A DNA stretch of 61,946 bases, taken from NCBI GenBank assembly GCA_014584305.1, contig JACTND010000235.1, positions 1-61,946 of the forward strand, in the 5' to 3' direction. Source of the stretch: Planctomycetota bacterium. Its GTDB lineage: Bacteria; Planctomycetota; Planctomycetia; Pirellulales; Pirellulaceae. Numbering within the stretch: position 1 is the first letter of the stretch; every line of letters starts with the position of its first letter. Positions 9,735-41,908 of the stretch are shown here, one piece after another. The position numbers and the translations under genes were made by a program. Below the pieces are notes generated by a model. The model saw only the letters and a list, made by a program, of their open reading frames with translations, had not been told where the DNA came from and searched no databases.

Positions 9735-9750
9735 ATACTCCTCAACGCGA

Positions 9751-10644: not shown

Positions 10645-10654
10645 CCCCTACCTC

Positions 10655-14201: not shown

Positions 14202-14510
14202 TCAGCGAGGCAAATTCGGTCGACGCCGTTTGTTCTTTTCTTCAATCCAGGCTTTGAGTGCCTCGACCGAATAGCGAACGCATTTTCCAATTCGAAGAAA
14301 CGGGATCCGGGCTTCGTTTCTGAGCGTCCAAAGGGTACGGCGGCTGATCCCCAAGGCCTTAGCAGCCTCCCCTTCGGTCAACAAAAGTTTTTCTGGGTCG
14401 TTGAGTGACGGAACGTTAGGCGTGTTCGAACCTATCGGCTCGTGCAGCAAACGGTTTGAGTTTTGAATTGTCATGTGATGACTCCAATTGAATTTGAGTT
14501 CGGGTCTCAA
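14202..14510 (-). CDS. xis: excisionase/AlpA-type helix-turn-helix DNA-binding protein
   Basis: 102 aa. LTEGEAAKALGISRRTLWTLRNEARIPFLRIGKCVRYSVEALKAWIEE is a typical MerR-superfamily excisionase HTH. Probable true start is the ATG at 14474 (MTIQNS...). Confidence 0.7.
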   Translation of the reverse strand: MRPELKFNWSHHMTIQNSNRLLHEPIGSNTPNVPSLNDPEKLLLTEGEAAKALGISRRTLWTLRNEARIPFLRIGKCVRYSVEALKAWIEEKNKRRRPNLPR

Positions 14511-21183: not shown

Positions 21184-23116
21184 CGATGAACCGGACGAGG
21201 ATTTCCTTCCGGCCAACGATCGACCGAATCCACTCGTCTGGATTCGGAGGCTTGTACTCGTTGAACAGCTCAATCCTGATGTCAAACCGTTAAGGGAGGT
21301 TGAATTTCGTCGTGGCTTGAACATCGTAGCCACGGCTCGCCCCGACGATGTGACTGACGGCCCGGTCGGCCACAACGTTGGCAAGACATTGTTGACGAGA
21401 CTGCTTCGATACTGTCTCGGGGAACAATATTTTGCTCGCGAAACCGTGCGAGCTGCTATTGGCAGGGCATTGAGCGCGGCACACGTAATTTGTGAGATTT
21501 GCGTCGATGGCACTTGGTGGGTAGTCTCACGACCGATAGGAGTTGACCGTGCCACAACGGCAAGGTGTCTGGCATCGGATTCCTGGCGTTCCATTCTTAC
21601 GGAAAACGCCAACACAGAACGATTCAGTAGATTTAGCGAGGTCCTGGATCAGGTCACAATTGCAAGGTACTCTGAAACCACTCTTCCGCACGCCAATCGT
21701 CCGGTACGGTGGATCGAATTACTTGCTTGGCTTAGTCGCGATCAATACTGCCGGTACCGTCATCCGTTGGAGTGGCGGGCCACATGGACCGAATCCGGAA
21801 CCGCCGACTTGCACAATGAGGATGCGAGCGTTTTGATTCGCCTCGTGATGGATATGCTGGATGACGAGGAAGGCAAGCTAATTCAGCTTCACAAGCAATT
21901 ATTGGACAGCAAAAAAGCAACGATGAGTGAAGTTGAGCGCATTGAACGCCGCCTCGCCCAGGCGCGTGGGTTCCTTCAGGAGCGCCTGAATATGGAGTCT
22001 GAGGCGTTGAGCGACGATCTTTTTGGGGGCATCGCCCGCGAAAAGGCGAAGCAATTGGTAAAAGACCTTCAACAGAAACTCGTCGAACTGGACGACGACC
22101 GCGACTGGCAGGCTTTGCTCGACGAAGTCGACCAGGCAAAACACGCTGTCGCTAGAAAGGAACAAGAAATTGCGACTCGTCAAGCTGACCGACAAACTGC
22201 GGAGGGCGAGAAGAAGCAGCAAGAGTCCGCATCGAGTGACGATTTGGCTCAATCACTCTCAGTCCTCGCTAACCCGTGTCCATCTGCCGCCGAGGACTGC
22301 ATATTCAAAAGGTCGACGGGTAAACCGGGAGAAGTTGACCCCCTGCGGCAGATGAGAATTGAGGAACTGACGCGCCACCTTCAAAGACTCGATCAAGCGA
22401 TAGCTGGGCTACAGAGTGAATTGGAGGCGCTGAAAGAGTGCCGCGACGAAGCCCTCGAAAAGCTTCGAAACTTAAGCAACCTTCGCCGCGATACTGAGCG
22501 ACGGTTCCGGCGTGACCTATCGGTCGCCGAAGCCCAAGTTCAAGAGGCCGAAATGTATGTCGCGTCGCTGACCGATATTCAAAAGGCCACAGGCAGTTTG
22601 GCTCGTATTGAACGCAAGATTGAGGAAAGCCGAAACACACAGAGTTCGGCGCGGGAACTGATTGCCAGTCGCACCAAGTTCCTCAATCGCCATTTCAGTC
22701 GTGCGCTTCATTCGTTGATTGCACAAAGTGTCGATGGCGAGATCAAGCTGGATATGCGGGGGTTGCACTTGTCGTTCGGGGACGAATCATCTCTTGGTGA
22801 AGCACTTGCCACATCCGAACGAGTTCTCAGCCTTGATATTGCGTGTCTGAGCGCTGCTATATGTGGCCTTGGTTTCCTCCCACGATTCACGATTCATGAC
22901 AGCCCACGTGAAGCAGACCTTGAGCCGCATATTTACGCAAGGCTGTTCAGATATTTGAAGTCGCTCGAAGATGCATTCGGCGACTGTGAACCATCGTTCC
23001 AGTACATTGTTACAACCACAACTCCGCCACCGGCCGAACTAAATCGACGTCCATTTCTGCGGCTCGAATTGGATGGGCGGTCGATCGATGGCCTACTACT
23101 TCGAAAACGTTTCTGA
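21158..23116 (+). CDS. SMC-like ABC ATPase of the Lamassu LmuB / DUF2326 (ABC-3C) type
   Basis: 652 aa. N-terminal head with P-loop-like GPVGHNVGKT followed by LLTRLLRYCLGE (the xxYCLG signature I associate with LmuB/DUF2326 ATPases). About 250 aa of coiled coil (KQLLDSKKATMSEVERIERRLAQARGFLQERL ... EALEKLRNLSNLRRDTERRF). C-terminal Walker B-like FLPRFTIHDSPREADLEP. The start overlaps the methyltransferase stop by 26 nt. Confidence 0.6.
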   Translation: MSDTKSLFNDEPDEDFLPANDRPNPLVWIRRLVLVEQLNPDVKPLREVEFRRGLNIVATARPDDVTDGPVGHNVGKTLLTRLLRYCLGEQYFARETVRAAIGRALSAAHVICEICVDGTWWVVSRPIGVDRATTARCLASDSWRSILTENANTERFSRFSEVLDQVTIARYSETTLPHANRPVRWIELLAWLSRDQYCRYRHPLEWRATWTESGTADLHNEDASVLIRLVMDMLDDEEGKLIQLHKQLLDSKKATMSEVERIERRLAQARGFLQERLNMESEALSDDLFGGIAREKAKQLVKDLQQKLVELDDDRDWQALLDEVDQAKHAVARKEQEIATRQADRQTAEGEKKQQESASSDDLAQSLSVLANPCPSAAEDCIFKRSTGKPGEVDPLRQMRIEELTRHLQRLDQAIAGLQSELEALKECRDEALEKLRNLSNLRRDTERRFRRDLSVAEAQVQEAEMYVASLTDIQKATGSLARIERKIEESRNTQSSARELIASRTKFLNRHFSRALHSLIAQSVDGEIKLDMRGLHLSFGDESSLGEALATSERVLSLDIACLSAAICGLGFLPRFTIHDSPREADLEPHIYARLFRYLKSLEDAFGDCEPSFQYIVTTTTPPPAELNRRPFLRLELDGRSIDGLLLRKRF

Positions 23117-23130
23117 GCCATAGAAAGCGA

Positions 23131-23667
23131 TTGCCCATGATCCTTAAGCAATTCGAATTGCGGCAACTGGCACCAGAATACCGAATCATTCGTGAGCATT
23201 ATTCGGTCAAGGCAGCGGCTGCGGCAGGTCGCACGACTGCGTTTTTGAGCCATAGCCACAAAGACAAGACCCTTGCCGAGGGCGTGCAAGTCTATCTCAA
23301 AAGGCAAGGGTGGGATGTTTATATCGATTGGCTGGATGAGGAAATGCCTGAGGCGATCAGTGCCGCGACAGCGACGAACTTACAAGCAAAGATAATGAAT
23401 ACAGAGTTTTTCTTGTTCCTCGCCACGCAGAACTCATGCAAAGTGTCACGTTGGTGCCCGTGGGAAATCGGATACGCAGATGGCAAGAAGGAAAGATCCA
23501 AGATCTTGATTATTCCAACGCAAGATGATAACGGGTACCAGTACGGCAGCGAATACCTCGGCCTCTATCGGCGCATCGAGAAGGCTACACCCGAAGGTGG
23601 CGGTGAATTTGCGGCTGCGGCGATTCCGCCATCAGGTAAAGGCGTCTGGATTAGGGCGCTGGGATAA
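23131..23667 (+). CDS. thsB: TIR-domain protein (Thoeris ThsB-type)
   Basis: 178 aa. TTAFLSHSHKDKTLAEGVQVYLKRQGWDVYIDWLD..., WCPWEIGYADG (conserved Glu). The ORF-track start is TTG at 23131; the ATG at 23137 is more likely. Confidence 0.75.
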   Translation: MPMILKQFELRQLAPEYRIIREHYSVKAAAAAGRTTAFLSHSHKDKTLAEGVQVYLKRQGWDVYIDWLDEEMPEAISAATATNLQAKIMNTEFFLFLATQNSCKVSRWCPWEIGYADGKKERSKILIIPTQDDNGYQYGSEYLGLYRRIEKATPEGGGEFAAAAIPPSGKGVWIRALG

Positions 23668-23692
23668 TGTAACGTTTCTATAAAGATGAACC

Positions 23693-25141
23693 ATGACCCC
23701 ACCGCCAAACGATGAAGACGTACTCGTCCGCGAGTTCACGAAGGAGCTGCACAATCACAACGCTGCCGTTTTCGTAGGCGCAGGATTGTCGGTTGGTGCA
23801 GGATATGTTGACTGGCTCGGGTTGCTGCGCGACCTAATTGTCGACTTGGGCTTGGATCCAAATGCAGAAACCGATTTGGTTACGTTGGCTCAGTACCATT
23901 GCAATAAAGTCGGAGGCAGGGGAAGGCTCACGCAAGTTGTATTCGACAAGTTCAGGGAAACAAATGAGCCAACGATCAACCACCGACTACTATCCCGACT
24001 ACCAATTCATACGTATTGGACCACCAATTACGACAAGCTTCTAGAAACCGCGTTGACCCAAGAGAAAAGGATCGCGGATGTGAAGTACACGGCGAATCAT
24101 CTCGCGATAACGCGCCTCGATCGCGATGTTTACGTTTACAAGATGCATGGGGACATAGATCATCCGGCCGACGCCGTTTTGACAAGGGACGACTATGAGC
24201 AGTACTCGTTCAAGATGGCTCCATTTTTGTCAGCATTAAAAGGAAACCTAATTGAAAAGACGTTTCTGTTCCTCGGATTCAGTTTTACGGACCCGAATAT
24301 CGACTACATATTAAGTCGGGTTCGGATTCAATACGGGCAGAATCAACGAGTGCATTACGCAATTCAGAAGCGCGTTACGCAGAACGCGGGCGAGAGCGGC
24401 GAAGTATTTCAGCGGCGGCAGCTCAAGCAGGATTATTTCATCGAGGACTTGAAACGCTTTGGAATACAGACGGTCCTTGTTGATGATTACACCGACATCA
24501 CGAGAGTCTTGCGTCGCATCGAAAATCGCTTCCGCCGTGCTTCAATTTTTGTTTCGGGCTCGGCCCACGAGTACGGCGGGTTCGCAGATCCGAAAGAATT
24601 CTTGCACAATCTGGCGTATAGAATTGCGGAGGAAAAAAACCGCGTAATCACTGGCTTTGGCTTGGGTGTCGGTGACGCCGTTATCAATGGTGCGGTCAGC
24701 TGGCTTGATCAAGCTGGCAAAACCATTTCAGACGAGGACGTGATGCTTCGTCCGTTCCCGCAGTTTGCAACTGGTGGCACTAGTTTGCCAGATCGATGGG
24801 AAGCATATCGGAAACTGATGATTCAACACGCGGGAATTGCCGTGTTCGTGTTTGGTAACAAGATCGATCATTCAAGCGGAGTAATCGTAAGTGCAAATGG
24901 CATGCGGCGCGAGTTTGAGCTGTGTCTTGAAAGGGAGGTAAAGGTTTTGCCAATCGGGGCTACCGGCTATTTAGCGGAAGAGCTCTGGAATGACGTTAAC
25001 GCACGGTTCGACACATGTTTTCCGGGAGCCAGTGGCGCCTTTCGGAATAATTTTGGGTTGATAGGGAATCGGTCGACGCCAGCTGATCAATTGATTCGCG
25101 CGGTAGTCGAAATGATCCGGGAGTTACAAAGGGGGGAATGA
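23693..25141 (+). CDS. thsA: Thoeris ThsA: N-terminal SIR2 (NADase) plus C-terminal SLOG-like ligand-binding domain
   Basis: 482 aa. SIR2_2-type motifs AAVFVGAGLSVGAGYVDWLGLL, WTTNYDKLLE, YKMHGDIDHP, FLFLGFSFTDPNIDYIL. C-terminal Rossmann-like SLOG signature IFVSGSAHEYGG...VITGFGLGVGDAVINGA...AGIAVFVFGNK. Confidence 0.8.
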   Translation: MTPPPNDEDVLVREFTKELHNHNAAVFVGAGLSVGAGYVDWLGLLRDLIVDLGLDPNAETDLVTLAQYHCNKVGGRGRLTQVVFDKFRETNEPTINHRLLSRLPIHTYWTTNYDKLLETALTQEKRIADVKYTANHLAITRLDRDVYVYKMHGDIDHPADAVLTRDDYEQYSFKMAPFLSALKGNLIEKTFLFLGFSFTDPNIDYILSRVRIQYGQNQRVHYAIQKRVTQNAGESGEVFQRRQLKQDYFIEDLKRFGIQTVLVDDYTDITRVLRRIENRFRRASIFVSGSAHEYGGFADPKEFLHNLAYRIAEEKNRVITGFGLGVGDAVINGAVSWLDQAGKTISDEDVMLRPFPQFATGGTSLPDRWEAYRKLMIQHAGIAVFVFGNKIDHSSGVIVSANGMRREFELCLEREVKVLPIGATGYLAEELWNDVNARFDTCFPGASGAFRNNFGLIGNRSTPADQLIRAVVEMIRELQRGE

Positions 25142-25716
25142 TGGCAAAACGTGTTTACTTTGCATTCCATTATAAGGACGTCGCGGAATTTCGTGCTAAC
25201 GTAATTCGCCAACACGGGGCCTTGCAATCATCGGATAAGTCTGGTTTCTTCGATTGGTCGATCTGGGAGGAGGCAAAGAAGCAGAGCACAATGGCTCTCA
25301 AGAGAATGATCAATCAAGAGTTGGAGGGCACATCGGTGACCGCCGTGTTAATCGGATCGGAGACTTGGTTTAGGCCATGGGTGCGTTACGAGATCTTCAA
25401 GAGTCTCGAGCGCGGCAATAAGCTGTTGGGAATCCACATTAACGGAATAAAGGGAAGAGACGGCCTGACCAAGGTGATTGGGCCTAATCCTTTCGATTTT
25501 TTGGCGGTCAAGCCTTCTCGAAATGGGAACGCTGAATGCTTGCAATGTGACGGTAAGACTTGGGCTGGGTTCAGTGAGGTCGAACCCTTTAGCTTCAATC
25601 ATTTTGACCTCCGGCAACATCCAAATGGGATCAAGTTGTCTGCGTTTAATGGCATTAGCGTATACGATTGGGTTCGCGACGACGGTTTCAATCGGTTTCG
25701 GTATTGGATTCAGTGA
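25138..25716 (+). CDS. thsB: DUF1863-type TIR-like protein (second ThsB)
   Basis: 192 aa. VYFAFHYKDVAEFRANVIRQHG..., SVTAVLIGSETWFRPWVRYEIFKSLERGNKLLGIHINGIK. Its ATG overlaps the thsA stop (ATGA). Confidence 0.7.
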   Translation: MMAKRVYFAFHYKDVAEFRANVIRQHGALQSSDKSGFFDWSIWEEAKKQSTMALKRMINQELEGTSVTAVLIGSETWFRPWVRYEIFKSLERGNKLLGIHINGIKGRDGLTKVIGPNPFDFLAVKPSRNGNAECLQCDGKTWAGFSEVEPFSFNHFDLRQHPNGIKLSAFNGISVYDWVRDDGFNRFRYWIQ

Positions 25717-26256
25717 ATGACTGGACCTGAGAAGAATCGAACGAAACCATTGGGCACAAGGGCTTGTGGTTTGTGCGTCAATTGCTTGCTACAGGTCCAG
25801 CAGGGCAAATTTCAACCACGCTTTTGGTTTCGGTGCAAAAGCGGCTCACGATGCCCCGACGAATGCCTGTAAAAACACCATTCCCTGTCGGCCGAACAGG
25901 CCACGAAACCCTAAGTTGACTCAAGGCGCCGAGGCCGCATCCGGCAGGCAAAATAACCTCTGTCCGATTCTCCCAGTCCATACCTGTTTTATGGCCCAGC
26001 AGCGGACAAGCGTGACTTAACTCAAAAAGGCCAAAGTTCGCTGCCTTGGGTCAATCCGGGGCCGGTCGCTCGGCATTTCGGGTGCAGAAGCAAACTCGCC
26101 GCAATTGCAGAATGGTTAACGGCTTACGCGTCTTGGTAAACGCTTAAGAAACCAGTCACAGATTGGTCTATCCCAAGTGCGACCGACCCGTTCATCCGGG
26201 TTGATGTGCATTGCAGGTCGCCGCTCTAAGCCGAAACACGTGTCGGCCCCGCACTC

Positions 26257-28170
26257 GTGATGGGTTGCAATGCACTTTGTAAGTTGAACGCAATGTCGAA
26301 GACGACCGCATTGTCCCATACGCCATCTACCACCTTGATCCACATGGCAAGGCTAAGACGCGGCCATCGACGGCTTTTGACTGTGGGCATTGTTCTCGTC
26401 GCCGCATTCGCAATAACGATGACCTGGCGTGCCAATCCAACCAACTATCGTGAGTCGCTGACCGCGATGGTCACGCGGGACCCGAAGGGCACATCGCCGC
26501 TCGTCCATGCAATCGATGGTTACCGCACATGGCTGGCGGACCGAAGCGGTTCAACTCAAGTTCTTATCTTCGAGTCACTTCTGTCGCTCTCCATCAATGG
26601 CGGGTTGCTAATCCATGACTTTCGAAGCGGCGAATCCGAAACACAAATCCCGATTGCAGGCTGGAACCTTGGAACAATCGGCGTCATCGCACGGTGCGCG
26701 TTCGTGATTCTAGCAGGGTTCAAATTGTGGATTACAGCTGCGTTGCTGACAGTGCTTTTGAAGTGGCTGTTACTTCGACCGTACTCCGGAAATGACATTC
26801 TGGGACAAACCGGAAATGGAAGGCCTTTTTTCTCGGGCATGCAAGTTCCGATCGAGCTCACAGAAGTGGCAGGATCTCCCAGTCTGCACGTCCGAGGTTT
26901 GGCCTGCCTTCCGAAAGGCTCAACCAAGTCAGCCTCGTCCAGAAATCTCTTGCGATGCCTTGATCAGTTTGAGGCGTCAAACGCGACCAACCGGGAGCTG
27001 GTCGCTGTTTTGGCAGGCGCGCCAACGATTCCCAAACAACCGGTCGAGCTCGCTGATTATGCGGAGGTACTTTTGGCCTCGTCTTTGTTGGCTCACCGGG
27101 ATATGTCTGCCCCAGAAAGTGGCGAATTCAAGGCCGACCAATCCAACTTCGTACCAGACAAGCTAAACACTGAAATCGCAAGCGTCTTTCGCCGAGTCAT
27201 TACTCCTGATCTGCGACCGCACTTGGCTGGTGTTGCTCCTGGCGAAATCGCAACCTTGGTTCTCTCTGTTCAGGCCGGGAAAATCCTGGCGTCAACGCAA
27301 ACAGAGAATGGCTGGATTCAAAACAGTTCGTATCCAAATCTTTCGGCACGAGCTGTCTTGCATTCGCTGGAAAACTACCCAACGGACTACAGCGCGAACC
27401 AACGACAACGACTACGGCAAGCACTCGTGTTTGCCATTCGCCAAACGGACTTCGGCCAAGTCTGTCTGCCCGCGGGGTTTTCGCCAGACTTTCAAGCTTT
27501 GAGGTCTTGGAGCGAGCTGTGCTTGGCGTCGCCAAATGAGCTTGACCAGAAGGCCAATGCCGTTGAGAGCACGAATTGGCAGAACCTGATTCACCAGAGG
27601 TTTCAAGAGTCGCTTGGTGGGTTGATGGATAGCCCACAAGGATCGGACGCATTGGCGGCCTGCTGTTGCGGCAACGTCGTGCTGATTCCGCAATCGAGGA
27701 TCGTCAATGTCTTTTCGGCTTCGATTAACCCGACTGACTTGCGGCGCATGGTCGAACTCGCGCAGGTTATAGATCCCGACATCAAAGACGTACCGGGCAC
27801 CGCGCCCGATTCGCCTCATGCCACTTGGCGCGTGATTCATCGGGCATTGTCCCAACATGGCTGGCTTTGCCAGAAAGTGGGGACTTCATCGGTGCCAACA
27901 GGTGGAGTGGTCACGGTCGTTGTGGAGCCGGAGGCAAATGGACTCGAGGGAACTCCCGGAAAACTCATCGTGCTTAAGGACGTGGTGCCGATTCGAGCGT
28001 CTTTGGTTACTCGTTCCCTCGGCGACGAATGGCGACGGCGTGTCGCGTGCGTGCGGGGGCTTAGCGTCATCACGTCCGAAAGTGAATTGCAAGAAGTTTT
28101 GAGCGGGAATCGACCGCTCGATGTTCGTTGGCTTGATGTTCAATCGCGTGAAGTGTCAATGGCGGGGTAA
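26257..28170 (+). CDS. large polytopic membrane protein of unknown function
   Basis: 637-aa ORF. Likely start is the ATG at 26344 (MARLRRGHRRLLTVGIVLVAAFAITM). Further hydrophobic helices at IGVIARCAFVILAGFKLWITAALLTVLLKWLLL. The ~430-aa soluble C-terminal region has no motif I recognise. Its stop lies 2 nt before the next ATG. Confidence 0.6.
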   Translation: MMGCNALCKLNAMSKTTALSHTPSTTLIHMARLRRGHRRLLTVGIVLVAAFAITMTWRANPTNYRESLTAMVTRDPKGTSPLVHAIDGYRTWLADRSGSTQVLIFESLLSLSINGGLLIHDFRSGESETQIPIAGWNLGTIGVIARCAFVILAGFKLWITAALLTVLLKWLLLRPYSGNDILGQTGNGRPFFSGMQVPIELTEVAGSPSLHVRGLACLPKGSTKSASSRNLLRCLDQFEASNATNRELVAVLAGAPTIPKQPVELADYAEVLLASSLLAHRDMSAPESGEFKADQSNFVPDKLNTEIASVFRRVITPDLRPHLAGVAPGEIATLVLSVQAGKILASTQTENGWIQNSSYPNLSARAVLHSLENYPTDYSANQRQRLRQALVFAIRQTDFGQVCLPAGFSPDFQALRSWSELCLASPNELDQKANAVESTNWQNLIHQRFQESLGGLMDSPQGSDALAACCCGNVVLIPQSRIVNVFSASINPTDLRRMVELAQVIDPDIKDVPGTAPDSPHATWRVIHRALSQHGWLCQKVGTSSVPTGGVVTVVVEPEANGLEGTPGKLIVLKDVVPIRASLVTRSLGDEWRRRVACVRGLSVITSESELQEVLSGNRPLDVRWLDVQSREVSMAG

Positions 28171-28172
28171 GG

Positions 28173-30305
28173 ATGGCACGGGATTACAAAAGAACCTCCG
28201 CTGAAGAGATCCGAAATAGCCAACGGCGGTCGGCGCTTACCGGAATTGGCCTGGCTATCCTTTGCACCCTGGCGTTAGCAGCGAGTCCGATGGGAGCAGT
28301 TATTGATCCCGGCTGGCTCTACGCGCTGGGAACCTTGCCAATGATTGCCGTCGCTAATGGAGCAAGCGTTCTAACGAGAGAAAGGTGGGTCGAGGTTCAC
28401 CGTCGGCGTGAGGTGGCACGAAGGTTCGGAAAGCCGGTATTGGGCGAGCCACCCGATCGCGGCTGCTTCCAGGAGGTCATGAACCAACTACGGGCCGAGG
28501 GCAAAACCATGATCGACCGGTACCTGGTAGGTTTTGAGTTAGCAACTGGGAAACCACTATGGGTTAGCGACGAGGACATGTGCAGCCATGGTTGCGTGTT
28601 CGCGAAAACAGGGGTGGGTAAGACGCTGATGCTGGAAGCCTTGATGTTCCAGCAAATGCTTCGTGGCCGTGCGAGCGGCTGCACGTTCATCGATGCCAAA
28701 CGTGATTCAGGCACGTTGGCACAGATCATCCTGATGGCTCAGGTGGCGGGCCGAATTGAAGACTTGATCGTGATTGACCCGTTCGATCCCGTGCACGCCT
28801 ATAACTTCGTGCTGACCAATCAACGCTCGGACGTGAAGGCTCGAAAAGTGTTGCGTGCTGGCTTGCCGCCCACTTCGGATCAGAGCACCACCAAGCACTA
28901 CGATCGATTGGCCGCCGACGCCGTGGCCCGCATGGTGCGGGCCTTGGAAAGCATCGGATTGTCCTGGTCGATTCACGACGTGGCGGTGGCTCTCTCCGCA
29001 TTCAATCTGTCCTATCCGCATCTGAAGAAAATGCTGCAAAGCATCGGAGCTACGCAAGCGTTGATCGAACTTGGGCACCTTGCGTCAAGTTACCGGGGGA
29101 CACGCGGTGCTATTGACGCTGCCAAACTGACGGACAATTTGCGCGGAATCGCTTCAGAGCTTCATGCCATTTCCGGCAGTTCCATGGGACCAGTGTTCTG
29201 TGCAAACTATACGGATCTCGTCCTTACGGATGCGATGCTGAGGGGGAAGATTGTTTACTTCATGCTCCCACGGCTGGAAGAGGCCGAGGGTGCGGCGCGC
29301 ATGGTCAAACTGTTTCGTGAGGACCTGGAAGTCTCAATCGGCGAAATCACATCGTCTCGACACCATCGGTTGGAGGATCCGCATCTGGTCATCATCGACG
29401 AGGGATCGTCGACCTTTGGTCCAACCTGGGCCAATTTGTTTGAACTGGCTAGAAAGGGTCGATTTGCGCTTTTTTTTGGCGCTCAATCGACGGGAGGATT
29501 GACCGACACTTCACTTGGTCTCAGTGAGGCGTTCTTTGAACGCGTTATGGCCAACGTCGGCCTGAAAGTGATGATGCGAGTTGGCGACAATCGCACCGCA
29601 CAAGAAATGGCCGAGTGGTTCGGAAAAGTGTCAACGGTCCGAACGTCTTTTGGGATGGGAGTTTCGAAGAACACTTCTGGTCGAGCGTTGCACGGCGGGA
29701 TGGATCCCCAAGCCAGATCTGGCGACGGCGAGTCGCGAACCGTTAACGTCGCAGAAGATGAGGACTATATCGTGAGCCCGGAGGAACTGAAGCACGAGAT
29801 GTCCAGCGAAAAGGGACTGGCGTGGTTTGACCTTGGGGACGGGAATATCGTGAAGGGCCGGGCAGTCTGGTTCAATGCCGAGATTCCCAGCAACTGGGAT
29901 GGCCGCGAGCACTTGGTTCGCCTGGAGCGTCGCGAAACAGATGAACTCGCGCTCGCGGCCTGGGTTGATCAACAAATCCTGTTGGAAGAAGCCGCAGCCA
30001 CGGCATACACGGGCAGGGAGCCACAGGCAGTGCAAGGAGAGGGAGTTAATCCAAATCGAAGTGATGGCGGAAGTCCGAAAGCTCCGGGAGGCGTGGACAC
30101 CACGTCCGACAAGTCTGAAAGCAAACCCTTCAAGATTGATACAAGCTTGAGCAAGCGAGTGTCTGGGGCTGTTCGTGAACTCCAGGCTGCCAGCCTTGCC
30201 GATTCATCGACGACCAAAAACGCAGAAAGGCAAAAGTTCAAGCCAGGCTCGATTCCCAAGGGTCGATTCCGGTTAGGTCGGTCAAAATCGATAGGCAGGG
30301 CATAG
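28173..30305 (+). CDS. second T4CP-like (TraD/VirD4/DotL-type, FtsK-HerA superfamily) membrane ATPase
   Basis: 710 aa. Two N-terminal TM helices. Walker A FAKTGVGKT, then TFIDAKRDSG...LIVIDPFDP...YNF (T4CP-like), Walker B HLVIIDEGSS. Charged low-complexity tail. Confidence 0.65.
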   Translation: MARDYKRTSAEEIRNSQRRSALTGIGLAILCTLALAASPMGAVIDPGWLYALGTLPMIAVANGASVLTRERWVEVHRRREVARRFGKPVLGEPPDRGCFQEVMNQLRAEGKTMIDRYLVGFELATGKPLWVSDEDMCSHGCVFAKTGVGKTLMLEALMFQQMLRGRASGCTFIDAKRDSGTLAQIILMAQVAGRIEDLIVIDPFDPVHAYNFVLTNQRSDVKARKVLRAGLPPTSDQSTTKHYDRLAADAVARMVRALESIGLSWSIHDVAVALSAFNLSYPHLKKMLQSIGATQALIELGHLASSYRGTRGAIDAAKLTDNLRGIASELHAISGSSMGPVFCANYTDLVLTDAMLRGKIVYFMLPRLEEAEGAARMVKLFREDLEVSIGEITSSRHHRLEDPHLVIIDEGSSTFGPTWANLFELARKGRFALFFGAQSTGGLTDTSLGLSEAFFERVMANVGLKVMMRVGDNRTAQEMAEWFGKVSTVRTSFGMGVSKNTSGRALHGGMDPQARSGDGESRTVNVAEDEDYIVSPEELKHEMSSEKGLAWFDLGDGNIVKGRAVWFNAEIPSNWDGREHLVRLERRETDELALAAWVDQQILLEEAAATAYTGREPQAVQGEGVNPNRSDGGSPKAPGGVDTTSDKSESKPFKIDTSLSKRVSGAVRELQAASLADSSTTKNAERQKFKPGSIPKGRFRLGRSKSIGRA

Positions 30306-30317
30306 GAATTCGAGAAC

Positions 30318-31292
30318 TCAAATGCGAATCCTTTCAACCTCATCCAAAGTGATTTCGTCGCTTGTCCGGTCGTAAAGCTTGGTGGTTCGAGGCGACTCAT
30401 GTGCGGCAATGGCTTGGGCGTTTTCGATGGTGCCTCCGTTTTCCAGGTAGGCCGTGATCCCCGTTGCTCGAAAAGTATGGCAGCCAATTCGAGCCTTGAT
30501 TCCCGCTGCTCGGGCACGGCGTCGGACCATTCGATAGGCATCATGCCGCGAGAGCGGCCGCGATGTTAATTGGCCAGCCTTCCCCTGCACACTCCGGAAG
30601 AGGGGAGCTTCCCGGTCAACGCCGATTCCAGCCGCTTGAATGTAGGCGTCGAGATATTCGACGACCTTGTGATGAGCCGGAACCTCGTGGTCTTTGCCTC
30701 CTTTTTCATGAAGCCGCAACGAATGTCGTTTTCCGATCTGCAAGTAGTCGCCGACTCGCATCTTGACCACGGCACTGACTCGGGCGAACGAGTAAATCAT
30801 CACCCCAATCAAAGCCCGGTCGCGCAGCCCGACCAACTGGTCGATTTTGATGCTCTCCAGCAACCTGCGGGCTTCGTCGGCCGTCAAAACCGGCGTCTTG
30901 CCACGTTTGACCACATATTTCGGTCCGCGAACCGACGAGGCCGGGTTCATCGGCAGGATTTGACCGACAACCAGCCAATCGAAACACATGCGGATCGCAG
31001 CCAGGTTCTGCTTTACGGTCGGCTTGGAATAATCGGCGCTAAGTTGTTCCACGTACGCCGCCACGATCATCGGCTCGATATCGAGCAATTCAATCCGCCG
31101 CTCATCGCACCAAGCAAAGAACTCGGTCAACGCCCGATGGTACGCTTCCCGGGTATTCCGGTTCCGAATGTTGGCCGTGAAGAACTCAAAGTACCGCTTG
31201 ACCGCCTTGGCCCCCGACTGGCGGATCAACCCCGGCGCCGCCATCGCCAGGCGGGTAGAAACAGCATTTGAAGTGGTCGGAAGTCGGCTCAA
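30318..31292 (-). CDS. tyrosine recombinase (XerC/D-like site-specific integrase)
   Basis: 324 aa. YFEFFTANIRNRNTREAYHRAL (SAM-like N-domain). Catalytic residues in LRDRAL, HEKGGKDHEVP, CHTFRATGIT, AHESPRTTKLY. TTG start at 31292; alternative ATG at MAAPGLIR. Confidence 0.8.
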   Translation of the reverse strand: MSRLPTTSNAVSTRLAMAAPGLIRQSGAKAVKRYFEFFTANIRNRNTREAYHRALTEFFAWCDERRIELLDIEPMIVAAYVEQLSADYSKPTVKQNLAAIRMCFDWLVVGQILPMNPASSVRGPKYVVKRGKTPVLTADEARRLLESIKIDQLVGLRDRALIGVMIYSFARVSAVVKMRVGDYLQIGKRHSLRLHEKGGKDHEVPAHHKVVEYLDAYIQAAGIGVDREAPLFRSVQGKAGQLTSRPLSRHDAYRMVRRRARAAGIKARIGCHTFRATGITAYLENGGTIENAQAIAAHESPRTTKLYDRTSDEITLDEVERIRI

Positions 31293-31306
31293 TTACCTCC
31301 TATAGA

Positions 31307-31338
31307 TCGTGAACCATAACGTCCTTTAGGGTTCACGA
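31307..31338. promoter_or_regulatory. 9-bp inverted repeat (TCGTGAACC N14 GGTTCACGA) just upstream of the recombinase start
   Basis: Read directly from the sequence. It sits 15-46 nt upstream of the TTG start at 31292. Candidate operator or recombinase-binding site. Confidence 0.4.
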
Positions 31339-31431
31339 AAATCGCCGCTTTGGCAAGATAGAATTACTGAAGCGAACACAGTTAGGCAGCTGTAATTCTT
31401 ATTGGACAGGCCGAACAACGAGAATCGCCGG

Positions 31432-31719
31432 TCATCGTCGGCGTTTGGCGTCGTTGACTGCTTCACTAATCGCCGACTCCATGTCGGAATCTGTAACGCC
31501 CCTGTCGCAAGCATTTCCATGGGCCTTTTCGAGAATGGCGTTAATGATCTGCTTGGCGCTCCTTTTGTTTCCGGGCGTCGGCAACCGGCTTGGAAAGTAA
31601 CCCGAAATGAAAACGCGTTGGCCTTTGCTTACAGGCTTGTCGAACAAACGTTCCAAGGCCGCGCGGTCGACTGCCGAAAGCTCCTCTACCCTGATGTCGT
31701 TAAAGAGTTGTCTTTCCAT
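31432..31719 (-). CDS. hypothetical small protein
   Basis: 95-aa ORF with a plausible composition (MERQLFNDIRVEELSAVDRAALERLFDKP...). No recognised motif. Confidence 0.4.
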   Translation of the reverse strand: MERQLFNDIRVEELSAVDRAALERLFDKPVSKGQRVFISGYFPSRLPTPGNKRSAKQIINAILEKAHGNACDRGVTDSDMESAISEAVNDAKRRR

Positions 31720-31797
31720 GGCCGGATTTTAGCAGGATCCGGTCGGAAACTCACGGCAATTCGAGTTTCGCAATCGGGGAATCACCGTCTGGGAAAT

Positions 31798-31868
31798 CGC
31801 CAACAGGTCACGAGGCAGGCTAAATCCGCCTCAAGGGGCTTGGTACCGATGGAGCCCCGCTATTGGCG
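31798..31868. repeat. structured ~70-nt repeat, copy A (three-helix junction)
   Basis: CGCCAACAGGTCACGAGGCAGGCTAAATCCGCCTCAAGGGGCTTGGTACCGATGGAGCCCCGCTATTGGCG. Shares its fold and junction sequence with copies at 33312-33390 and 39487-39561. Confidence 0.7.
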
Positions 31869-31937
31869 AAAAAGAGAGCGAACAATCGACCGCTCTGCGG
31901 CGGTTTCCAGCCATGATGCTTGGCTAAAACGTCATGC

Positions 31938-31966
31938 TTGACAAATATGTCACGTTATCGTATGAT
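31938..31966 (+). promoter_or_regulatory. sigma70-like promoter (TTGACA - 17 nt - TATGAT) for the 31986 operon
   Basis: -35 TTGACA at 31938-31943, 17-nt spacer, -10 TATGAT at 31961-31966. AAGGA Shine-Dalgarno immediately before the ATG at 31986. Confidence 0.45.
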
Positions 31967-31985
31967 TGTTGTCGAGGATTAAGGA

Positions 31986-32525
31986 ATGGTGCCACAGTTT
32001 GACGAAAACGGCGTGTTGCCTCCGGGTGATTACCCGCTGACGCTCGACCAGCTTCGGGAATCCTTGTTAGTGGAAGGATCACAACTCTCCTCGCATTGGG
32101 ATCGCGACTGGCGTTTGGCTTTGGTCGAAAACCTGTCGGTAATGTGTCGGCAGCTCTGGCAAGTTGGCATCGTGGAGATATTCGTCAACGGGTCGTTCGT
32201 GGAAGACAAAGATCATCCCAATGACATCGACGGCTACTTCGTTTGTGATTTTCGGCGCCTTGCCAGCGGCGACTTGCAACGCGAGTTGAACGTGCTCGAT
32301 CCGCACAAGATCTGGACCTGGGACCCTGCTTCACGGCGGCCCTATCGTGGGTACCCCAAGAAGCAATTGCCCATGTGGCATATTTATCGCGTCGAGCTAT
32401 ATCCGCATTACGGCCAATCGTCTGGGATCCGCGACAAGTTTGGGCACGAGTTGGAATTTCCTTCCGCTTTTCGGCAATCCCGCCGGGACGGAAAGCCCAA
32501 AGGAATCGTGCAAATCGTGAGGTGA
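31986..32525 (+). CDS. minimal nucleotidyltransferase-fold protein (DUF6932-like)
   Basis: 179 aa. VPQFDENGVLPPGDYPLTLDQLRESL... and the NTase-like IFVNGSFVEDKDHPNDIDGYF motif (GS...D.D). Confidence 0.55.
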   Translation: MVPQFDENGVLPPGDYPLTLDQLRESLLVEGSQLSSHWDRDWRLALVENLSVMCRQLWQVGIVEIFVNGSFVEDKDHPNDIDGYFVCDFRRLASGDLQRELNVLDPHKIWTWDPASRRPYRGYPKKQLPMWHIYRVELYPHYGQSSGIRDKFGHELEFPSAFRQSRRDGKPKGIVQIVR

Positions 32526-32528
32526 TTT

Positions 32529-32990
32529 ATGATTAAGAGCGAAACAGAGTATCAACAAGCCGTTGAGCGAATTAAGGATGAGGCGCAGCGAATCAAGGCA
32601 CAGCAAAAGGAGCTACAGGGGCTAGATCTATCCAAGGAGGAGATCAAGCGAGTCCTTGACCCGATGCGATCATTTCATGAGCAGCTCAAGGAAGAAGTCG
32701 ACAGTTATGAGAAGCTGAAACGCGGCGAATTTGAGGAAGTCCGCAACTTTGAAGGGATGGGCCGATTGTTGGTCGCCTTGCGAATCGCTCAAGGACTTTC
32801 TCAGCGTGAACTGGCCGAGCGACTAAACGTACACGAGTCTCAAGTCTCCCGCGATGAACGGAACGAGTACCACGGTATCTCGGTCGATCGTATCAAGCGA
32901 ATCCTCGACGCTCTGGGTGCGGAGGTTCGTACATCAGTCGTTACTTTTGGCGAAAGCGTCGCCACCGGCCGCGAGCCCGTTTCGACTTAA
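32529..32990 (+). CDS. XRE-family helix-turn-helix protein with N-terminal coiled coil
   Basis: 153 aa. LRIAQGLSQRELAERLNVHESQVSRDERNEYHGISVDRIKRILDALG. Starts 3 nt after the preceding stop. Confidence 0.7.
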   Translation: MIKSETEYQQAVERIKDEAQRIKAQQKELQGLDLSKEEIKRVLDPMRSFHEQLKEEVDSYEKLKRGEFEEVRNFEGMGRLLVALRIAQGLSQRELAERLNVHESQVSRDERNEYHGISVDRIKRILDALGAEVRTSVVTFGESVATGREPVST

Positions 32991-33023
32991 TTGAGTCGGC
33001 TCGCTGGGGACAGGATGTGTTAG

Positions 33024-33239
33024 TCACTCCTCAGGCGGGCCCGACCTCTCCTGTGCAGCGTCGTCGGCAATTGGGTACATTCCCAAACGACAAAGCAGCC
33101 CACCTACGCTGATTGAGGGGTACCGATCCTCCTCTGCAGCAACGCGCCGCAGCCAGTCTTCGCTGGGCACGAGATTGATTTCTTTTGGATCCGGGTCGCT
33201 TTTCTCGTATGTCATGTTACAGCCAATTATGCTTTGCAA
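33024..33239 (-). CDS. hypothetical small protein (weak call)
   Basis: 71-aa ORF with no motif. It may be spurious. Confidence 0.25.
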   Translation of the reverse strand: MQSIIGCNMTYEKSDPDPKEINLVPSEDWLRRVAAEEDRYPSISVGGLLCRLGMYPIADDAAQERSGPPEE

Positions 33240-33311
33240 TTGGCGGCAAAGTCAATTCTGATTGTAATCGAAACGGTCCGAAGGGCCGCAGTGTAGCCTC
33301 GAACTGTTCAG

Positions 33312-33390
33312 CCACTTTTCGCCAACAGGTTACGAGGCAGGCAAAGGCCTCCTCAAGGGGCTTTGAATCGGTGGAGCCCCACTGGCAAAG
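33312..33390. repeat. structured ~70-nt repeat, copy B
   Basis: ..CTTTTCGCCAACAGGTTACGAGGCAGGCAAAGGCCTCCTCAAGGGGCTTTGAATCGGTGGAGCCCCACTGGCAAAG.. The helices are retained with different sequence. Confidence 0.65.
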
Positions 33391-33517
33391 AAACCAATAC
33401 GCTGTTAGTCAGGCACGCACGATTCGAGAATGCGGACTGCTCGCTTTGGTTGATGCGAACGCTGCGAGTTGCAGCGTTGGCGAATCGACAGCGATGGCAT
33501 CGCCTCAGCGAAAAAGT

Positions 33518-33545
33518 TTGCCGATTCTTACACTCTCGCTAGAAT
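33518..33545 (+). promoter_or_regulatory. possible promoter (TTGCCG - 16 nt - TAGAAT) for the 33573 gene
   Basis: Read directly from the sequence. The -10 element ends 28 nt before the ATG. Confidence 0.3.
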
Positions 33546-33572
33546 GACCACGTCTTTAGATTTAGTAACGGA

Positions 33573-34238
33573 GTGACCATGTTCGACGAAATATTGCGCG
33601 AATTGCGACGGATGCCAAAAACATTCACTATTCCAATTGAATTGCCTCTTGATGAAAAGGGCTACCTTGACCGAGCGTGTCATCAGCGTGAATGTACATG
33701 CCAATTCAAGGTCATGGAGCAGGATTGGATTAACAAAGTGAGAGATGAAGCCGCGTTTTGCCCCAAATGCGGCGGAGCATCCCCGGCAGACGAATTCAAT
33801 ACGGAAGCCCAGCAGAGATTCATCAAAAAGGTGGGCGAGAGGTTTGCGGCTGAACAACTCGACAAGACCATGAAAAGGGCAATTAGGCGGACACGACCGC
33901 AGAAGGTTAGCGCGGGCCTTTTCAACATTGAAATGACTCTGTCGTATACATCCGAGCGGGTCCAAAGGCCGATCGCCCACAAAGCCAATGAGGTACTGCG
34001 GCAAGATTTTGAGTGTTCGGAATGCAATTGTAGGTATTCGACGATTGGCGCTGGATATTTCTGCCCGGCGTGCGGGCACAACTCGGCAGAGCGAGACTTT
34101 GCACAGACGGTGGAAACGACGCTGAGGGCAGTTGACTTGCTGGGGCAAATCAAGGCAACGGTTATTGAGCATGCCGATGCTGATGTCGCCGAAGATCTTC
34201 AGCAGCAAATGATGAAAGTCAAATCGAAAATCTCGTGA
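33573..34238 (+). CDS. double zinc-ribbon protein, function unknown
   Basis: 221 aa. CHQRECTC...CPKCGG and CSECNC...CPACGH Cys4 pairs. GGAG 9 nt upstream of the ATG. The 33528..34208 minus ORF is its shadow. Confidence 0.6.
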   Translation: MTMFDEILRELRRMPKTFTIPIELPLDEKGYLDRACHQRECTCQFKVMEQDWINKVRDEAAFCPKCGGASPADEFNTEAQQRFIKKVGERFAAEQLDKTMKRAIRRTRPQKVSAGLFNIEMTLSYTSERVQRPIAHKANEVLRQDFECSECNCRYSTIGAGYFCPACGHNSAERDFAQTVETTLRAVDLLGQIKATVIEHADADVAEDLQQQMMKVKSKIS

Positions 34239-34600
34239 CGGCGCTGCAGCGAGTAACGGAATCGATGTACGAAAAACTCCCCGGCATCTCAGCTGCGCCG
34301 TTCAATGTGTTCCAGCGGATGGATGAAGCTTCTGAGCTTTGGCAATCCGCGATTGGGCGAGGTTATGGCGACATTCTCAACGCGACCGAATTTGTGTTTT
34401 TGAAGAAGATGGTGCAACGCCGTCATAAACTTGGGCACTCGCAGGGAATGATTGATAGTAGGTATGTTCGAAATACCGGAGATTCCAATTACCAACCGGG
34501 GCAGCGGCTTGTGGTCAACCAGGCGGATGTTCGTGAACTCGCGAAAGTAGCGACAAAGCTGGTGGCCGGACTTATGCAACACCGGTTAGAAACTCAATGA
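34235..34600 (+). CDS. hypothetical protein; either GTGA-coupled to, or frameshifted from, the preceding zinc-ribbon gene
   Basis: 121 aa with a GTG start overlapping the upstream TGA. Its frame is already open from 34184 (…NDESQIENLVTALQRVTE). Confidence 0.5.
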   Translation: MTALQRVTESMYEKLPGISAAPFNVFQRMDEASELWQSAIGRGYGDILNATEFVFLKKMVQRRHKLGHSQGMIDSRYVRNTGDSNYQPGQRLVVNQADVRELAKVATKLVAGLMQHRLETQ

Positions 34601-34608
34601 GGTTTCGG

Positions 34609-34643
34609 TCAATGCTGGCCGTCGATCTGAGCAGCCAGCATTG
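34609..34643. terminator. hairpin between convergent genes (11-bp stem TCAATGCTGGC / GCCAGCATTGA, 13-nt loop)
   Basis: Read directly from the sequence. Lies between the stop at 34600 (+) and the stop at 34655 (-). Confidence 0.5.
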
Positions 34644-34654
34644 AGCCGAATACT

Positions 34655-35122
34655 TCAGAAGGATTCGTTGTTGAGCACGGAATGGGCGCCAGCTGCGGTG
34701 ACGATCAAAGAGTCGATTAGCGTAATTCCCATCAGCTCACCGGCCTTGGAAAGGCGTTGCGTAATGTCCAGATCTTCGCGGCTTGGCGTCAAGGATCCCG
34801 ACGGGTGATTGTGAGCCACGATAAAAGCACGGGCCCCGACAAGGACGGCACGTTGAAACACTTCCCGGGGATGAACGAGCGACGAATTCGCAGTGCCGGT
34901 CGAGATCACAGAGAAGCTCGCGACTTGATTTGCTCCATCCAGATATAACGCGACAAAATGCTCGCGGCTGTTGTCCGGCAGTACGTCCCGAATAAACTGC
35001 ACGGCATCGCCAGGGGCAGTCACTTTGAAAGGCGACTCCGTGGACGGCCGATAATTGACGATTACCTCGCGAATGAATTTGTCGGTAAAGCCAGGGTTTG
35101 AGTTCTGAAGTACTTGAAACAT
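34655..35122 (-). CDS. radC: RadC-like JAB/MPN domain protein
   Basis: JAB motif FIVAHNHPSGSLTPSREDLDIT. I place the start at the ATG at 35122, preceded by GGAGGA, rather than at the ORF-track start 35269. Confidence 0.8.
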   Translation of the reverse strand: MFQVLQNSNPGFTDKFIREVIVNYRPSTESPFKVTAPGDAVQFIRDVLPDNSREHFVALYLDGANQVASFSVISTGTANSSLVHPREVFQRAVLVGARAFIVAHNHPSGSLTPSREDLDITQRLSKAGELMGITLIDSLIVTAAGAHSVLNNESF

Positions 35123-35210
35123 GTTCCTCCATGTCTGAAATAGGCAATTTGCCAAGCCTCGACTGGAAGCGAATTCTTCCAAGTCGCCCTTGGCTGGGAG
35201 GAACGTCCAG

Positions 35211-35295
35211 CACGGCAAGTCAAGGTGGAGCCTCGCCGCAGGCGAGCAGCAGCCGCTAAGCCCAGTCAAAATATGCGGCGGACCTTGACGCCGTG
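35211..35295 (-). ncRNA. structured element upstream of radC (copy 1; candidate radC-motif RNA or ssDNA promoter)
   Basis: Long closing helix CACGGCaaGTCAAGGT / ACCTTGACgCCGTG enclosing the hairpin CTCGCC-tgc-GGCGAG (minus-strand sense). Homologous to 37957-38048. Ends 88 nt before the radC ATG. Confidence 0.5.
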
Positions 35296-35328
35296 CTATG
35301 ATCGAAAGACAAGCAAGACCGAGTTAAC

Positions 35329-36195
35329 TTACGATAGCCGCTTTTTCAATTTGCGGACGACTCGTTTTGCAGGTTTGCCTTTAACCCCGGCTCGGTGATC
35401 TCGGACTGAAGCGGCGACCGCCAAAGTGTCATCAGTGAGTTTTCGATTGGGCCACGGACAGAGGTGCTTTTTCGACATTGGGCACTTTGAACAATTGGGC
35501 TCAGTTTCGAGGCAATAATTGCGACCCAGATTCCAAGCAGGCGAGTCCAGGAGTCCGGGAAACTCGGGGTTAAGCGAGCGGGCGAGATATGTGATCGAGT
35601 CAATTGATTCATTACGTTCCGAGAGGCCAAGACGCCAAAAAACCCGTCGCACCTGAACGTCGACGGAGATGTCTATCGAGAAGTAGTCAGAGAACGGGAC
35701 TTTTAGGTTGCGGGCCAAAATATTGGCTGCCATCGTGGCGATCTTTGGGCCGACGCCTCGAAACTGCAGGAACCGATATACGACTTGAGCACTCGAAGGC
35801 TTGTTGGTCCAGATTCGCGAAGCATCGCCTCCCCAATTCGATCCGATTAGTTGGATGGCGTCGTAGAAATTCCTGCTCATGTCCTCGGCGAAACGATGCA
35901 GTGAGCGCGGCTTCGTCATCAATTTGTAGATGCGAGCCTGCGAGAGCGCCGAGAGTGTGGCAAAAGAAAAGTCTCCAAGCACTCGTGCGAACTCGTAAGG
36001 TATGATCCATGCCCGCTCGGCTTTGACCTGGCGATCCATGATGCAACCAATCACAAAAGCGTGCGGGAAACGTTCAAGATCGTTCAATAACGCATCCGCA
36101 TCAGCGTTGCCGGTAAACTCGTGAAACGCGCTGGAGGAATCTAGCAGTCGTTTCCCCTGCGCAACGAGCTCTTTGACGATTGCTTCCTTGGTCAT
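35329..36195 (-). CDS. HhH-GPD superfamily (endonuclease III-like) DNA glycosylase-like protein
   Basis: 288 aa. Helix-hairpin-helix FLQFRGVGPKIATMAANIL. C-terminal Cys cluster CLETEPNCSKCPMSKKHLC resembles the EndoIII 4Fe-4S loop. Confidence 0.55.
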   Translation of the reverse strand: MTKEAIVKELVAQGKRLLDSSSAFHEFTGNADADALLNDLERFPHAFVIGCIMDRQVKAERAWIIPYEFARVLGDFSFATLSALSQARIYKLMTKPRSLHRFAEDMSRNFYDAIQLIGSNWGGDASRIWTNKPSSAQVVYRFLQFRGVGPKIATMAANILARNLKVPFSDYFSIDISVDVQVRRVFWRLGLSERNESIDSITYLARSLNPEFPGLLDSPAWNLGRNYCLETEPNCSKCPMSKKHLCPWPNRKLTDDTLAVAASVRDHRAGVKGKPAKRVVRKLKKRLS

Positions 36196-41420: not shown

Positions 41421-41908
41421 TGGTCGAATGAGAATATCGCCATTGTATCACCGAGTTAAGCAAACCGGTCCCAATCGGCATGGAGCCCAAGTTTCCAAGG
41501 TCGAACCCGCAAGGAAGGGCTGCCACGGATTATCGTTGACAATTCAATCGCGTTGATCCACCCTTTCCATTGCTTGGTGAAACGGAAGCGAGCTCTGCGG
41601 GGACGCAACGTGCCAGGGATAGCGAGCCGAAGCGTCGACTTGAAGGTTCTTCGATTCTGGCAGCCTCATTCGGCCAAGGGGTTGGGAACAATCTCCTCCT
41701 TGCCGCTTGAGCGTTTTGGGTCGGGATGATTTGAGTGGGCATAGATTGCAAGGCCTAAAGTTGCCAATCAGCCTGACGAGATGGCATTGAAACTCGGCAT
41801 CGATGGACCAAATGTCGGTTGCGGTCGCCGAGCACCTGAACCTAAATTTCTGAAGGTCCTCTCGAACCGCCGTCGAAAGCCACCCGTTTCAAAACTATTG
41901 CCAATTCA

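Follow-up and report, generated by a model that had tools for sequence, protein, structure and literature searches.

Two adjacent genes, A and B, were analysed in a 61,946-nucleotide (nt) stretch of planctomycete DNA (contig JACTND010000235.1, Pirellulaceae; hereafter the window), where they lie downstream of a Thoeris defence system and are met from the other side by a convergent gene for an Xer-like tyrosine recombinase. Gene B encodes a type IV coupling protein (T4CP) of the VirD4/TraD type that is intact and very divergent, and gene A its membrane-anchored partner, and the pair is displaced DNA-transfer machinery and not a proven anti-phage system. The home of the pair is a reduced F-like type IV secretion system (T4SS) fixed in the chromosomes of more than 100 species of Bdellovibrionota, and A-B is the coupling module of this distinct lineage. 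The reading preferred here, in which the pair in the window is a working coupling complex that moves DNA or nucleoprotein through a channel provided by another part of the genome or by a different element and belongs neither to Thoeris nor to defence, is given about an even chance of being correct.

The coupling ATPase and its partner protein

26344-28170, + strand: gene A, membrane-anchored partner, 608 amino acids (aa) from the ATG, or 637 aa if translation starts at the GTG at 26257
28173-30305, + strand: gene B, divergent VirD4/TraD-type coupling ATPase, 710 aa

A first-pass annotation of the window had called two open reading frames (ORFs) of 637 and 710 aa with a 2-nt spacer, and both ORFs and the spacing were confirmed; in 19 other contigs carrying an identical B, the start of A is placed at ATG 26344 (608 aa) or at the codon after the GTG (636 aa). 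T4CPs are membrane-anchored, hexameric P-loop ATPases of the FtsK/HerA superfamily that take up a substrate, DNA or nucleoprotein, and deliver it to the channel of a type IV secretion system. The N-terminal transmembrane (TM) anchor and the P-loop NTPase core with Walker A and B motifs that mark such proteins are all located in B, as annotated: two hydrophobic helices (residues 21-43, 28233-28301, and 48-67, 28314-28373), Walker A AKTGVGKT (residues 144-151, 28602-28625) and Walker B VIIDEGSS (residues 406-413, 29388-29411). The tail of the protein is basic and of low complexity and carries a conserved FK[LI] motif (30123-30140).

The curated T4CP domain TraG-D_C (PF12696) was detected on B using Pfam at 25.7 bits against a cutoff of 22, and TrwB_AAD_bind scored 17.3 bits, under its threshold of 20.5. 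The best NCBIfam models, SXT_TraD (1e-18), TrbC (TrbC_conju; 4e-14) and TOL TraD, all remained far under their cutoffs. Because TrwB_AAD_bind and every NCBIfam T4CP model fall below cutoff, B is a member of the T4CP superfamily outside every curated subfamily. A profile built from 26 family members, whose invariant alignment columns are by definition all kept in the window's B, found a single solved protein in the PDB, DotL (6sz9, 1e-12), with the match spanning the Walker A region only. Foldseek searches with an AlphaFold2 (AF2) model of B returned DotL (8e-7), TrwB (1e-5), HerA (4.5e-4) and Cag-beta (8e-4), the model being poor (predicted local distance difference test, pLDDT, 56) and the TM-scores ranging from 0.2 to 0.46; the alignment with TrwB (1e9r, 1gl6), the second-best structural match, covers 474 columns at 14-17% identity. 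No FtsK gamma-like or other FtsK-type domain was detected in B by any search. Coupling proteins usually diverge fast and travel with their own channel and relaxase, so that the identity of 60-75% retained by B across Planctomycetota, Cyanobacteriota and Bdellovibrionota, with more than 400 relatives in that range, is unusual for a protein of this class.

The partner had been described in the first-pass annotation as a large polytopic membrane protein, a description that was not borne out: A has one TM helix (residues 11-28, 26374-26427), one hydrophobic segment of 34-40 residues (residues 111-144, 26674-26775), the family motif LGQTGNGRPFFSG at 26800-26838 and about 460 soluble residues after the hydrophobic segment. 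Lysine and arginine counts around the two segments weakly favour an N-in, C-in topology, and by the positive-inside rule the soluble domain may weakly be placed in the cytoplasm. No match was found for A in Pfam, NCBIfam or PADLOC, no Pfam match recurred among 39 family members, and no nuclease or other effector domain was detectable. The AF2 model of A (pLDDT 82.7, predicted TM-score 0.73) matched PDB folds only at E=0.79 or worse in a library that included the coupling complex 6sz9, and the A profile against PDB sequences, 6sz9 among them, reached E=0.33 at best and did not find DotM. The model thus points to a family whose predicted fold lacks a solved relative. Structures of DotM are available (PMC5802825), and identity of A with DotM was rejected, as neither profile nor fold matched. 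The profile and structure searches proposed in the first-pass annotation for both proteins placed B among the T4CPs by TraG-D_C, with DotL and TrwB as the best fold matches of a poor model, and returned no DotM/IcmP for A. A evolves much faster than B: compared in the same set of organisms, A is 19-34% identical and B 60-75%.

Home context in Bdellovibrionota and comparison with known transfer systems

Relatives of the pair were collected using an alignment-based scan with one genome per species, which succeeded where a single-protein scan of genome contigs had given nothing. The scan identified 111 relatives of B, the best 80 of which, almost all from Bdellovibrionota metagenome-assembled genomes, were analysed by calling and clustering the surrounding ORFs. 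A is an obligate partner of B: in 71 of 71 loci it immediately precedes B in the same orientation, the gap between them having a median of 10 nt. A third gene of 163 aa follows B in 57 loci. Among the 61 loci for which 5 kb or more of upstream DNA was available, 44 have the pair adjoined by a divergent T4SS operon comprising a 129-aa gene, a TraL-like gene, TraE, TraK, TraB (TrbI), a lipoprotein, TraV and TraC (VirB4), and these neighbours were assigned to PF05309 (TraE), PF23536 (TraK_C), PF03743 (TrbI), PF09676 (TraV) and PF11130 (TraC_F_IV). The flanks of the home loci are housekeeping genes (aminoacyl-tRNA synthetase-like, GidB, homoserine dehydrogenase, GcpE, PNPase, GluRS, XseA and DnaJ). 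In the one locus that was walked for 10 kb past TraC, no relaxase, TraW, TraU, TraN, TraF, TraH or TraG was found. The genes past TraC in one such locus (L094, 12748-18331) are two of 100 aa, a bPH_2 gene, an SH3 gene, an M23 peptidase and a 719-aa reprolysin-type metalloprotease, followed by GcpE. No paper on a reduced chromosomal F-like T4SS of uncultured Bdellovibrionota was found.

The Bdellovibrionota modules and the window share the same two families, the same gene order and the same tight coupling, at 58-71% identity over the best-matching segment for B and 19-27% for A. They differ in that the Bdellovibrionota pair usually stands beside the TraL-like/E/K/B/V/C operon and is followed by the 163-aa gene, both of which the window lacks, whereas the window's pair abuts an Xer-like recombinase. 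Planctomycete A is also about 80 aa shorter than its Bdellovibrionota counterparts.

One interpretation in the first-pass annotation had derived the pair from a second, nested element, as the relic of a coupling complex resembling DotM/DotL. The part of this that stands is a coupling-protein pair from a transfer lineage differing from that of the other T4CP of the island. The lineage is F-type and not Dot/Icm, as shown by the family's neighbours, TraE, TraK, TraB, TraV and TraC, and by the closest plasmid T4CPs, which lie on megaplasmids with F-type mating-pair formation (MPF) systems (MPF_F); the home-locus channel genes are F-type and not those of type IVB (MPF_I), which would be expected of a Dot/Icm complex. 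A DotM-like partner is likewise not supported by the profile or by the fold of A, and whether the pair is a relic is taken up below.

Among characterised systems, the Legionella DotL-DotM pair (IcmO-IcmP) and TrbC-TrbA of the IncI plasmid R64 resemble A-B in placing the membrane-partner gene first and the T4CP second, and DotL is both the only solved protein found by the B profile and its top fold match, within the Walker A limit given above. A-B is unlike DotL-DotM in that A has no similarity to DotM, the channel genes are F-type and no DotN, IcmS/W or LvgA-like genes are present. The conjugative MPF_F megaplasmid pHN39-SIM of Pseudomonas aeruginosa (T4CP WP_023662247.1) is like the B family in that its T4CP operon is divergent from traL-E-K-B-V-A-C, a hypothetical gene precedes the T4CP, and NCBIfam ranks SXT_TraD first, with TOL_TraD and TrbC following in a slightly different order; it is unlike the window in that its T4CP is about 28% identical to B and a MOBF relaxase and a full MPF gene set are on the plasmid. 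Homology of A with the proteins flanking the pHN39-SIM T4CP was rejected using hhalign. TrwB of R388 may share its hexameric T4CP fold with B, to judge from the poor model, and unlike B is encoded on the same plasmid as a relaxase and a VirB-type channel.

The planctomycete copies and their recombinase

30318-31292, - strand: Xer-like tyrosine recombinase, convergent to B, 324 aa from the TTG or 308 aa from ATG 31244
31309-31336, no strand assigned: dif-like site of 28 bp, right-hand limit of the block common to relatives
25717-26343, no strand assigned: non-coding stretch from ThsB to gene A, 540 nt to GTG 26257 and 627 nt to ATG 26344
14507-16075: second T4CP, TrwB/TraD-like, on the same island
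16511-17713: relaxase remnant, TraA-type, with the helicase part alone kept, on the same island

Only three lineages resembling the window were found, namely the window itself, which is present in many sludge and wastewater metagenomes, a close relative (L095/L101) with B at 97% protein and 91% DNA identity, and a distant one (L001) with B at 74-75%, A at 33-34% and the recombinase at 85% identity. The recombinase is convergent to B in all three, and in the window the B stop codon (ending at 30305) is separated from the recombinase ORF by a 12-nt gap, in agreement with the distance first annotated. Three sequencing runs labelled RNA-Seq (X1, X13, X14), compared with window positions 17000-36000, contain a single contig of 28,776 bp whose depth is flat over genes of both strands; they behave like DNA and are of no use as expression evidence.

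A decaying relic of a second conjugative element, with no present function, would account for the missing channel genes and third gene and for the shorter planctomycete A, and decay is plain in the other transfer module of the island, where the relaxase is truncated. This explanation is very hard to credit, as the ratio of nonsynonymous to synonymous substitution rates (dN/dS) between the window and the 91%-identical L095 is 0.045 for B (dS 0.38), compared with 0.071 for the recombinase, the catalytic motifs are intact, and the ORFs are intact in all three lineages, A and B being full length in L001 although synonymous sites are saturated. With this low dN/dS, B is under strong purifying selection, as is the recombinase, and with A and B intact in L001 the pair is functional and not a relic, contrary to the earlier annotation. 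B is thus under strong selection even where no channel gene is nearby, and the planctomycete pair offers a way into a little-studied T4SS lineage and into the question of what a coupling ATPase does by itself.

An independent B without A was found on the linear 505-kb plasmid pLBX of Leptolyngbya boryana (NZ_AP014640.1, L098), where a full-length B (WP_017291638.1; 63% identical over 535 residues using tblastn against plasmids) lies 214 nt from a divergent protelomerase gene (WP_017291636.1) in the region 9745-13812. Leptolyngbya boryana is a cultured cyanobacterium with finished plasmid records and would offer a tractable host.

A and B form one operon and, in the preferred explanation, would assemble into a membrane coupling complex in which B takes a DNA or nucleoprotein substrate and feeds it into a type IV secretion channel, with A acting as adaptor or receptor. 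The module comes from the reduced F-like T4SS lineage and has neither channel genes nor the third gene with it in the window, so that the channel would be supplied in trans from elsewhere in the genome or by another element; it has been inherited under purifying selection beside what looks like an order-wide Xer-type recombinase and a dif-like site. A channel in trans is favoured because B keeps 60-75% identity to copies that stand beside a channel.

Several observations weigh against this explanation. Family hidden Markov models (HMMs) for the MPF channel genes and the 163-aa gene (TraE, TraK, TraB, TraV, TraC, TraL-like and third-gene families) gave no match at E<=1 in six frames of the 61.9-kb window, of 44.3 kb of the 45.9-kb L001 contig or of the first 12 kb of the L095 contig, and the genes tabulated for the initial 20 kb of L101 include no T4SS family. 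Pfam searches of 30 of the larger window ORFs likewise gave no T4SS gene beyond B, the second T4CP and the relaxase remnant, so that the earlier statement that no other T4SS component accompanies the pair holds by Pfam and by family HMMs. No relaxase belonging to the pair was found, the window's truncated relaxase going with the other T4CP, both being present where the first-pass annotation had placed them; the channel and relaxase normally encoded with a T4CP are thus both wanting in the window. No homologue of A was found in any plasmid record and no close TraC among the top plasmid matches, and, to judge from the orphan on pLBX, B can be maintained with neither A nor a channel gene close by. 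A is most likely an adaptor or receptor subunit of the coupling complex, a role proposed from its position and co-occurrence with B, and the structural model of B is poor. Finally, copies of B detached from an MPF operon tend to have the longest branches, which hints at a changed role; in a midpoint-rooted tree the window and L001 group with long-branch copies that lack an adjacent T4SS operon (L010, L022), and in a tree with a plasmid T4CP outgroup the base of the B family was unresolved.

The recombinase next to B contains the Pfam domains Phage_integrase and SAM_1 and scores 130 bits against the XerD model, whose cutoff is 330, and under the XerC cutoff as well. At least 7998 homologues were found at E<=1e-30; the top 120 are 67-85% identical, of the same length and on contigs of up to 7.05 Mb, and those with names belong to Pirellulaceae, Pirellula, Pirellulales, Botrimarina and Aeoliella, which is further support for a host from the Pirellulales. 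Because homologues are this numerous and the named ones are all Pirellulales, the enzyme looks, by sequence, like a host gene and not the integrase of a nested element, and the nested element of the first-pass annotation loses ground with the likeness of this recombinase to an order-wide Xer-type enzyme. A private mobilisation module of A, B and recombinase is weakened by the same numbers, at least 7998 recombinase homologues against A-B in three lineages. An integrative mobilizable element would combine a private recombinase with a relaxase or oriT and a T4CP; here no relaxase and no second 28-bp site were found.

The dif-like site has the 11-6-11 form GTGAACCATAA-CGTCCT-TTAGGGTTCAC, with 17 nt between it and the start of the recombinase gene, upstream of which it stands. 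It occurs in a single copy in the window, with 0 copies expected by chance, its 19-nt core is identical in the window, L095 and L001, and no second copy or half-sites were found near A. The small ORFs that precede the recombinase in the window are unrelated to those in L001. Synteny with the 91%-identical relative stops at 31364, about 25 nt past the site, and returns at 34603. Directly right of the site, L101 (3246-5710) has hemC, hemB and a methyltransferase where the window has a nucleotidyltransferase/helix-turn-helix pair, so that genes of housekeeping type are part of the variable block. On these comparisons, recombinase and site look like an Xer/dif-type locus with one recombinase, and the segment to the right like a recombination hotspot resembling an integrative mobile element exploiting Xer (IMEX) or an integron. 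XerS/difSL is a precedent for a recombinase gene with a linked dif-like site (PMC2731167).

This arrangement bears on another explanation, in which the pair has lost its channel and is a membrane DNA pump that works independently of MPF, alone or with the neighbouring recombinase, either in dimer or telomere resolution and segregation after the manner of FtsK/XerCD-dif or with the recombinase as an atypical relaxase similar to MpsA, TcpM or MobK. FtsK-XerCD/dif and XerS/difSL (PMC2731167, PMC5357621) share with the window a membrane-anchored ATPase of the FtsK/HerA superfamily beside an Xer-like recombinase with a linked 28-bp 11-6-11 site, tyrosine-recombinase-like relaxases exist (PMC6414798, PMC8152469), the linkage of B to the recombinase across 12 nt recurs in three lineages, the orphan B is near a protelomerase with neither A nor a close TraC among the top plasmid matches, and about 120 kb of related contigs hold no MPF gene. 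We nevertheless regard such a pump as doubtful. The window is unlike FtsK-XerCD/dif in that B has no detected FtsK-type domain, the FtsK gamma-like domain included, in that GC skew is negative on both chromosomal flanks, unlike a replication terminus, and in that the dif role of the site is putative. With thousands of close homologues against three lineages that have A-B, the recombinase can do without the pair, and their adjacency may simply have been passed on vertically; A-B probably entered beside the recombinase in a single insertion and was inherited from then on. Recombinases are also common on mobile DNA, and two adjacencies could be chance.

A wider form of this idea, that the B family consists of T4CP-derived pumps recruited without a channel to enzymes of the tyrosine-recombinase fold (an Xer-type enzyme with a dif-like site in the Pirellulales clade, a protelomerase on the cyanobacterial plasmid), is improbable. 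If true, it would represent an FtsK-like or relaxase-free route to resolve, segregate or export DNA and would explain how the 'relaxase-less' F-like system of Bdellovibrionota handles its substrate.

Defence neighbours and limits of the island

A stand-alone defence or exclusion module acting on incoming phage or plasmid DNA had been the second interpretation in the first-pass annotation, and we consider it quite improbable. Defence systems do lie directly upstream of the pair in both lineages with a visible left flank, restriction-modification and Thoeris in the window and a type-1 BREX system with a Metallophos/HATPase pair in L001; A evolves very fast (34% identity where B has 74-75% and the recombinase 85%), which is typical of conflict genes; and PADLOC reports mad8 on B (46.6 bits, 8e-13). 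MAD7/MAD8 form the ATPase-nuclease module of a real defence system, MADS, an eight-gene mad1-mad8 operon with a methyltransferase and a kinase (PMC13662399). The other MADS genes are absent and A has no PADLOC match, so that this hit reflects the generic ATPase core and gives no positive support; membership of MADS was rejected, the match being on B alone with Thoeris and a recombinase as neighbours (PMC13662399). T4CP profiles and structures outrank HerA and the defence ATPases, and A contains no detectable nuclease or effector domain. A HerA-type defence module (SIR2-HerA) does not fit either, as the HerA fold ranks below DotL/TrwB, A lacks an effector and ThsA belongs to the complete Thoeris system. 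The first-pass annotation had suggested surveying whether the pair recurs in defence islands and had named constant association with conjugation genes as evidence against defence; the T4SS operon adjoining most home loci goes far toward that outcome. In more than 100 species the pair sits with T4SS or housekeeping genes, and defence neighbours are confined to the window lineage and L001.

The complete Thoeris system (ThsA, SIR2-STALD) ends with ThsB at 25716, at least 540 nt upstream of A, which bears out the roughly 540 bp of non-coding DNA first reported if the GTG start is used. In this stretch no Rfam match, no sigma-70 consensus promoter on the + strand and no conservation with its L001 equivalent were found. 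Since the gap is 540-627 nt and BREX replaces Thoeris in L001, the pair is separate from Thoeris, and as the upstream defence content differs between the window and L001, the pair is not part of any one defence system. Adjacency is the one link between the pair and defence, and for annotation, adjacency to Thoeris or BREX is accordingly no evidence of a defence role.

The L001 contig (L097/L096/L091; logan SRR17720540_12137) carries a type-1 BREX system of BrxE, A, B, C, PglX, PglZ and BrxL, with a DUF3800 gene between BrxC and PglX and an AAA ATPase and an S8 peptidase between PglX and PglZ; the pair after BREX, directly upstream of A-B, is Metallophos and HATPase_c_3.

The left end of the window's island is a tRNA-Phe gene (12779-12855) that overlaps the end of an integrase ORF. 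In four assemblies the 49-nt 3' half of this tRNA gene shows double depth, with two contigs leading into it and two leading out, and no second copy was found in the window, so that attR of the island is beyond the window or in another part of the genome. A 23-nt motif at 12990-13012 recurs 81 nt from the second 49-nt copy, and the two could be arm-type sites. Every assembly ends roughly 106 nt past the start of the last gene in the window. Within the window, four assemblies show double depth over a 38-nt sequence at 41572-41609, which is entered by a second contig of equal depth, and Logan contigs of the island end at 41601.

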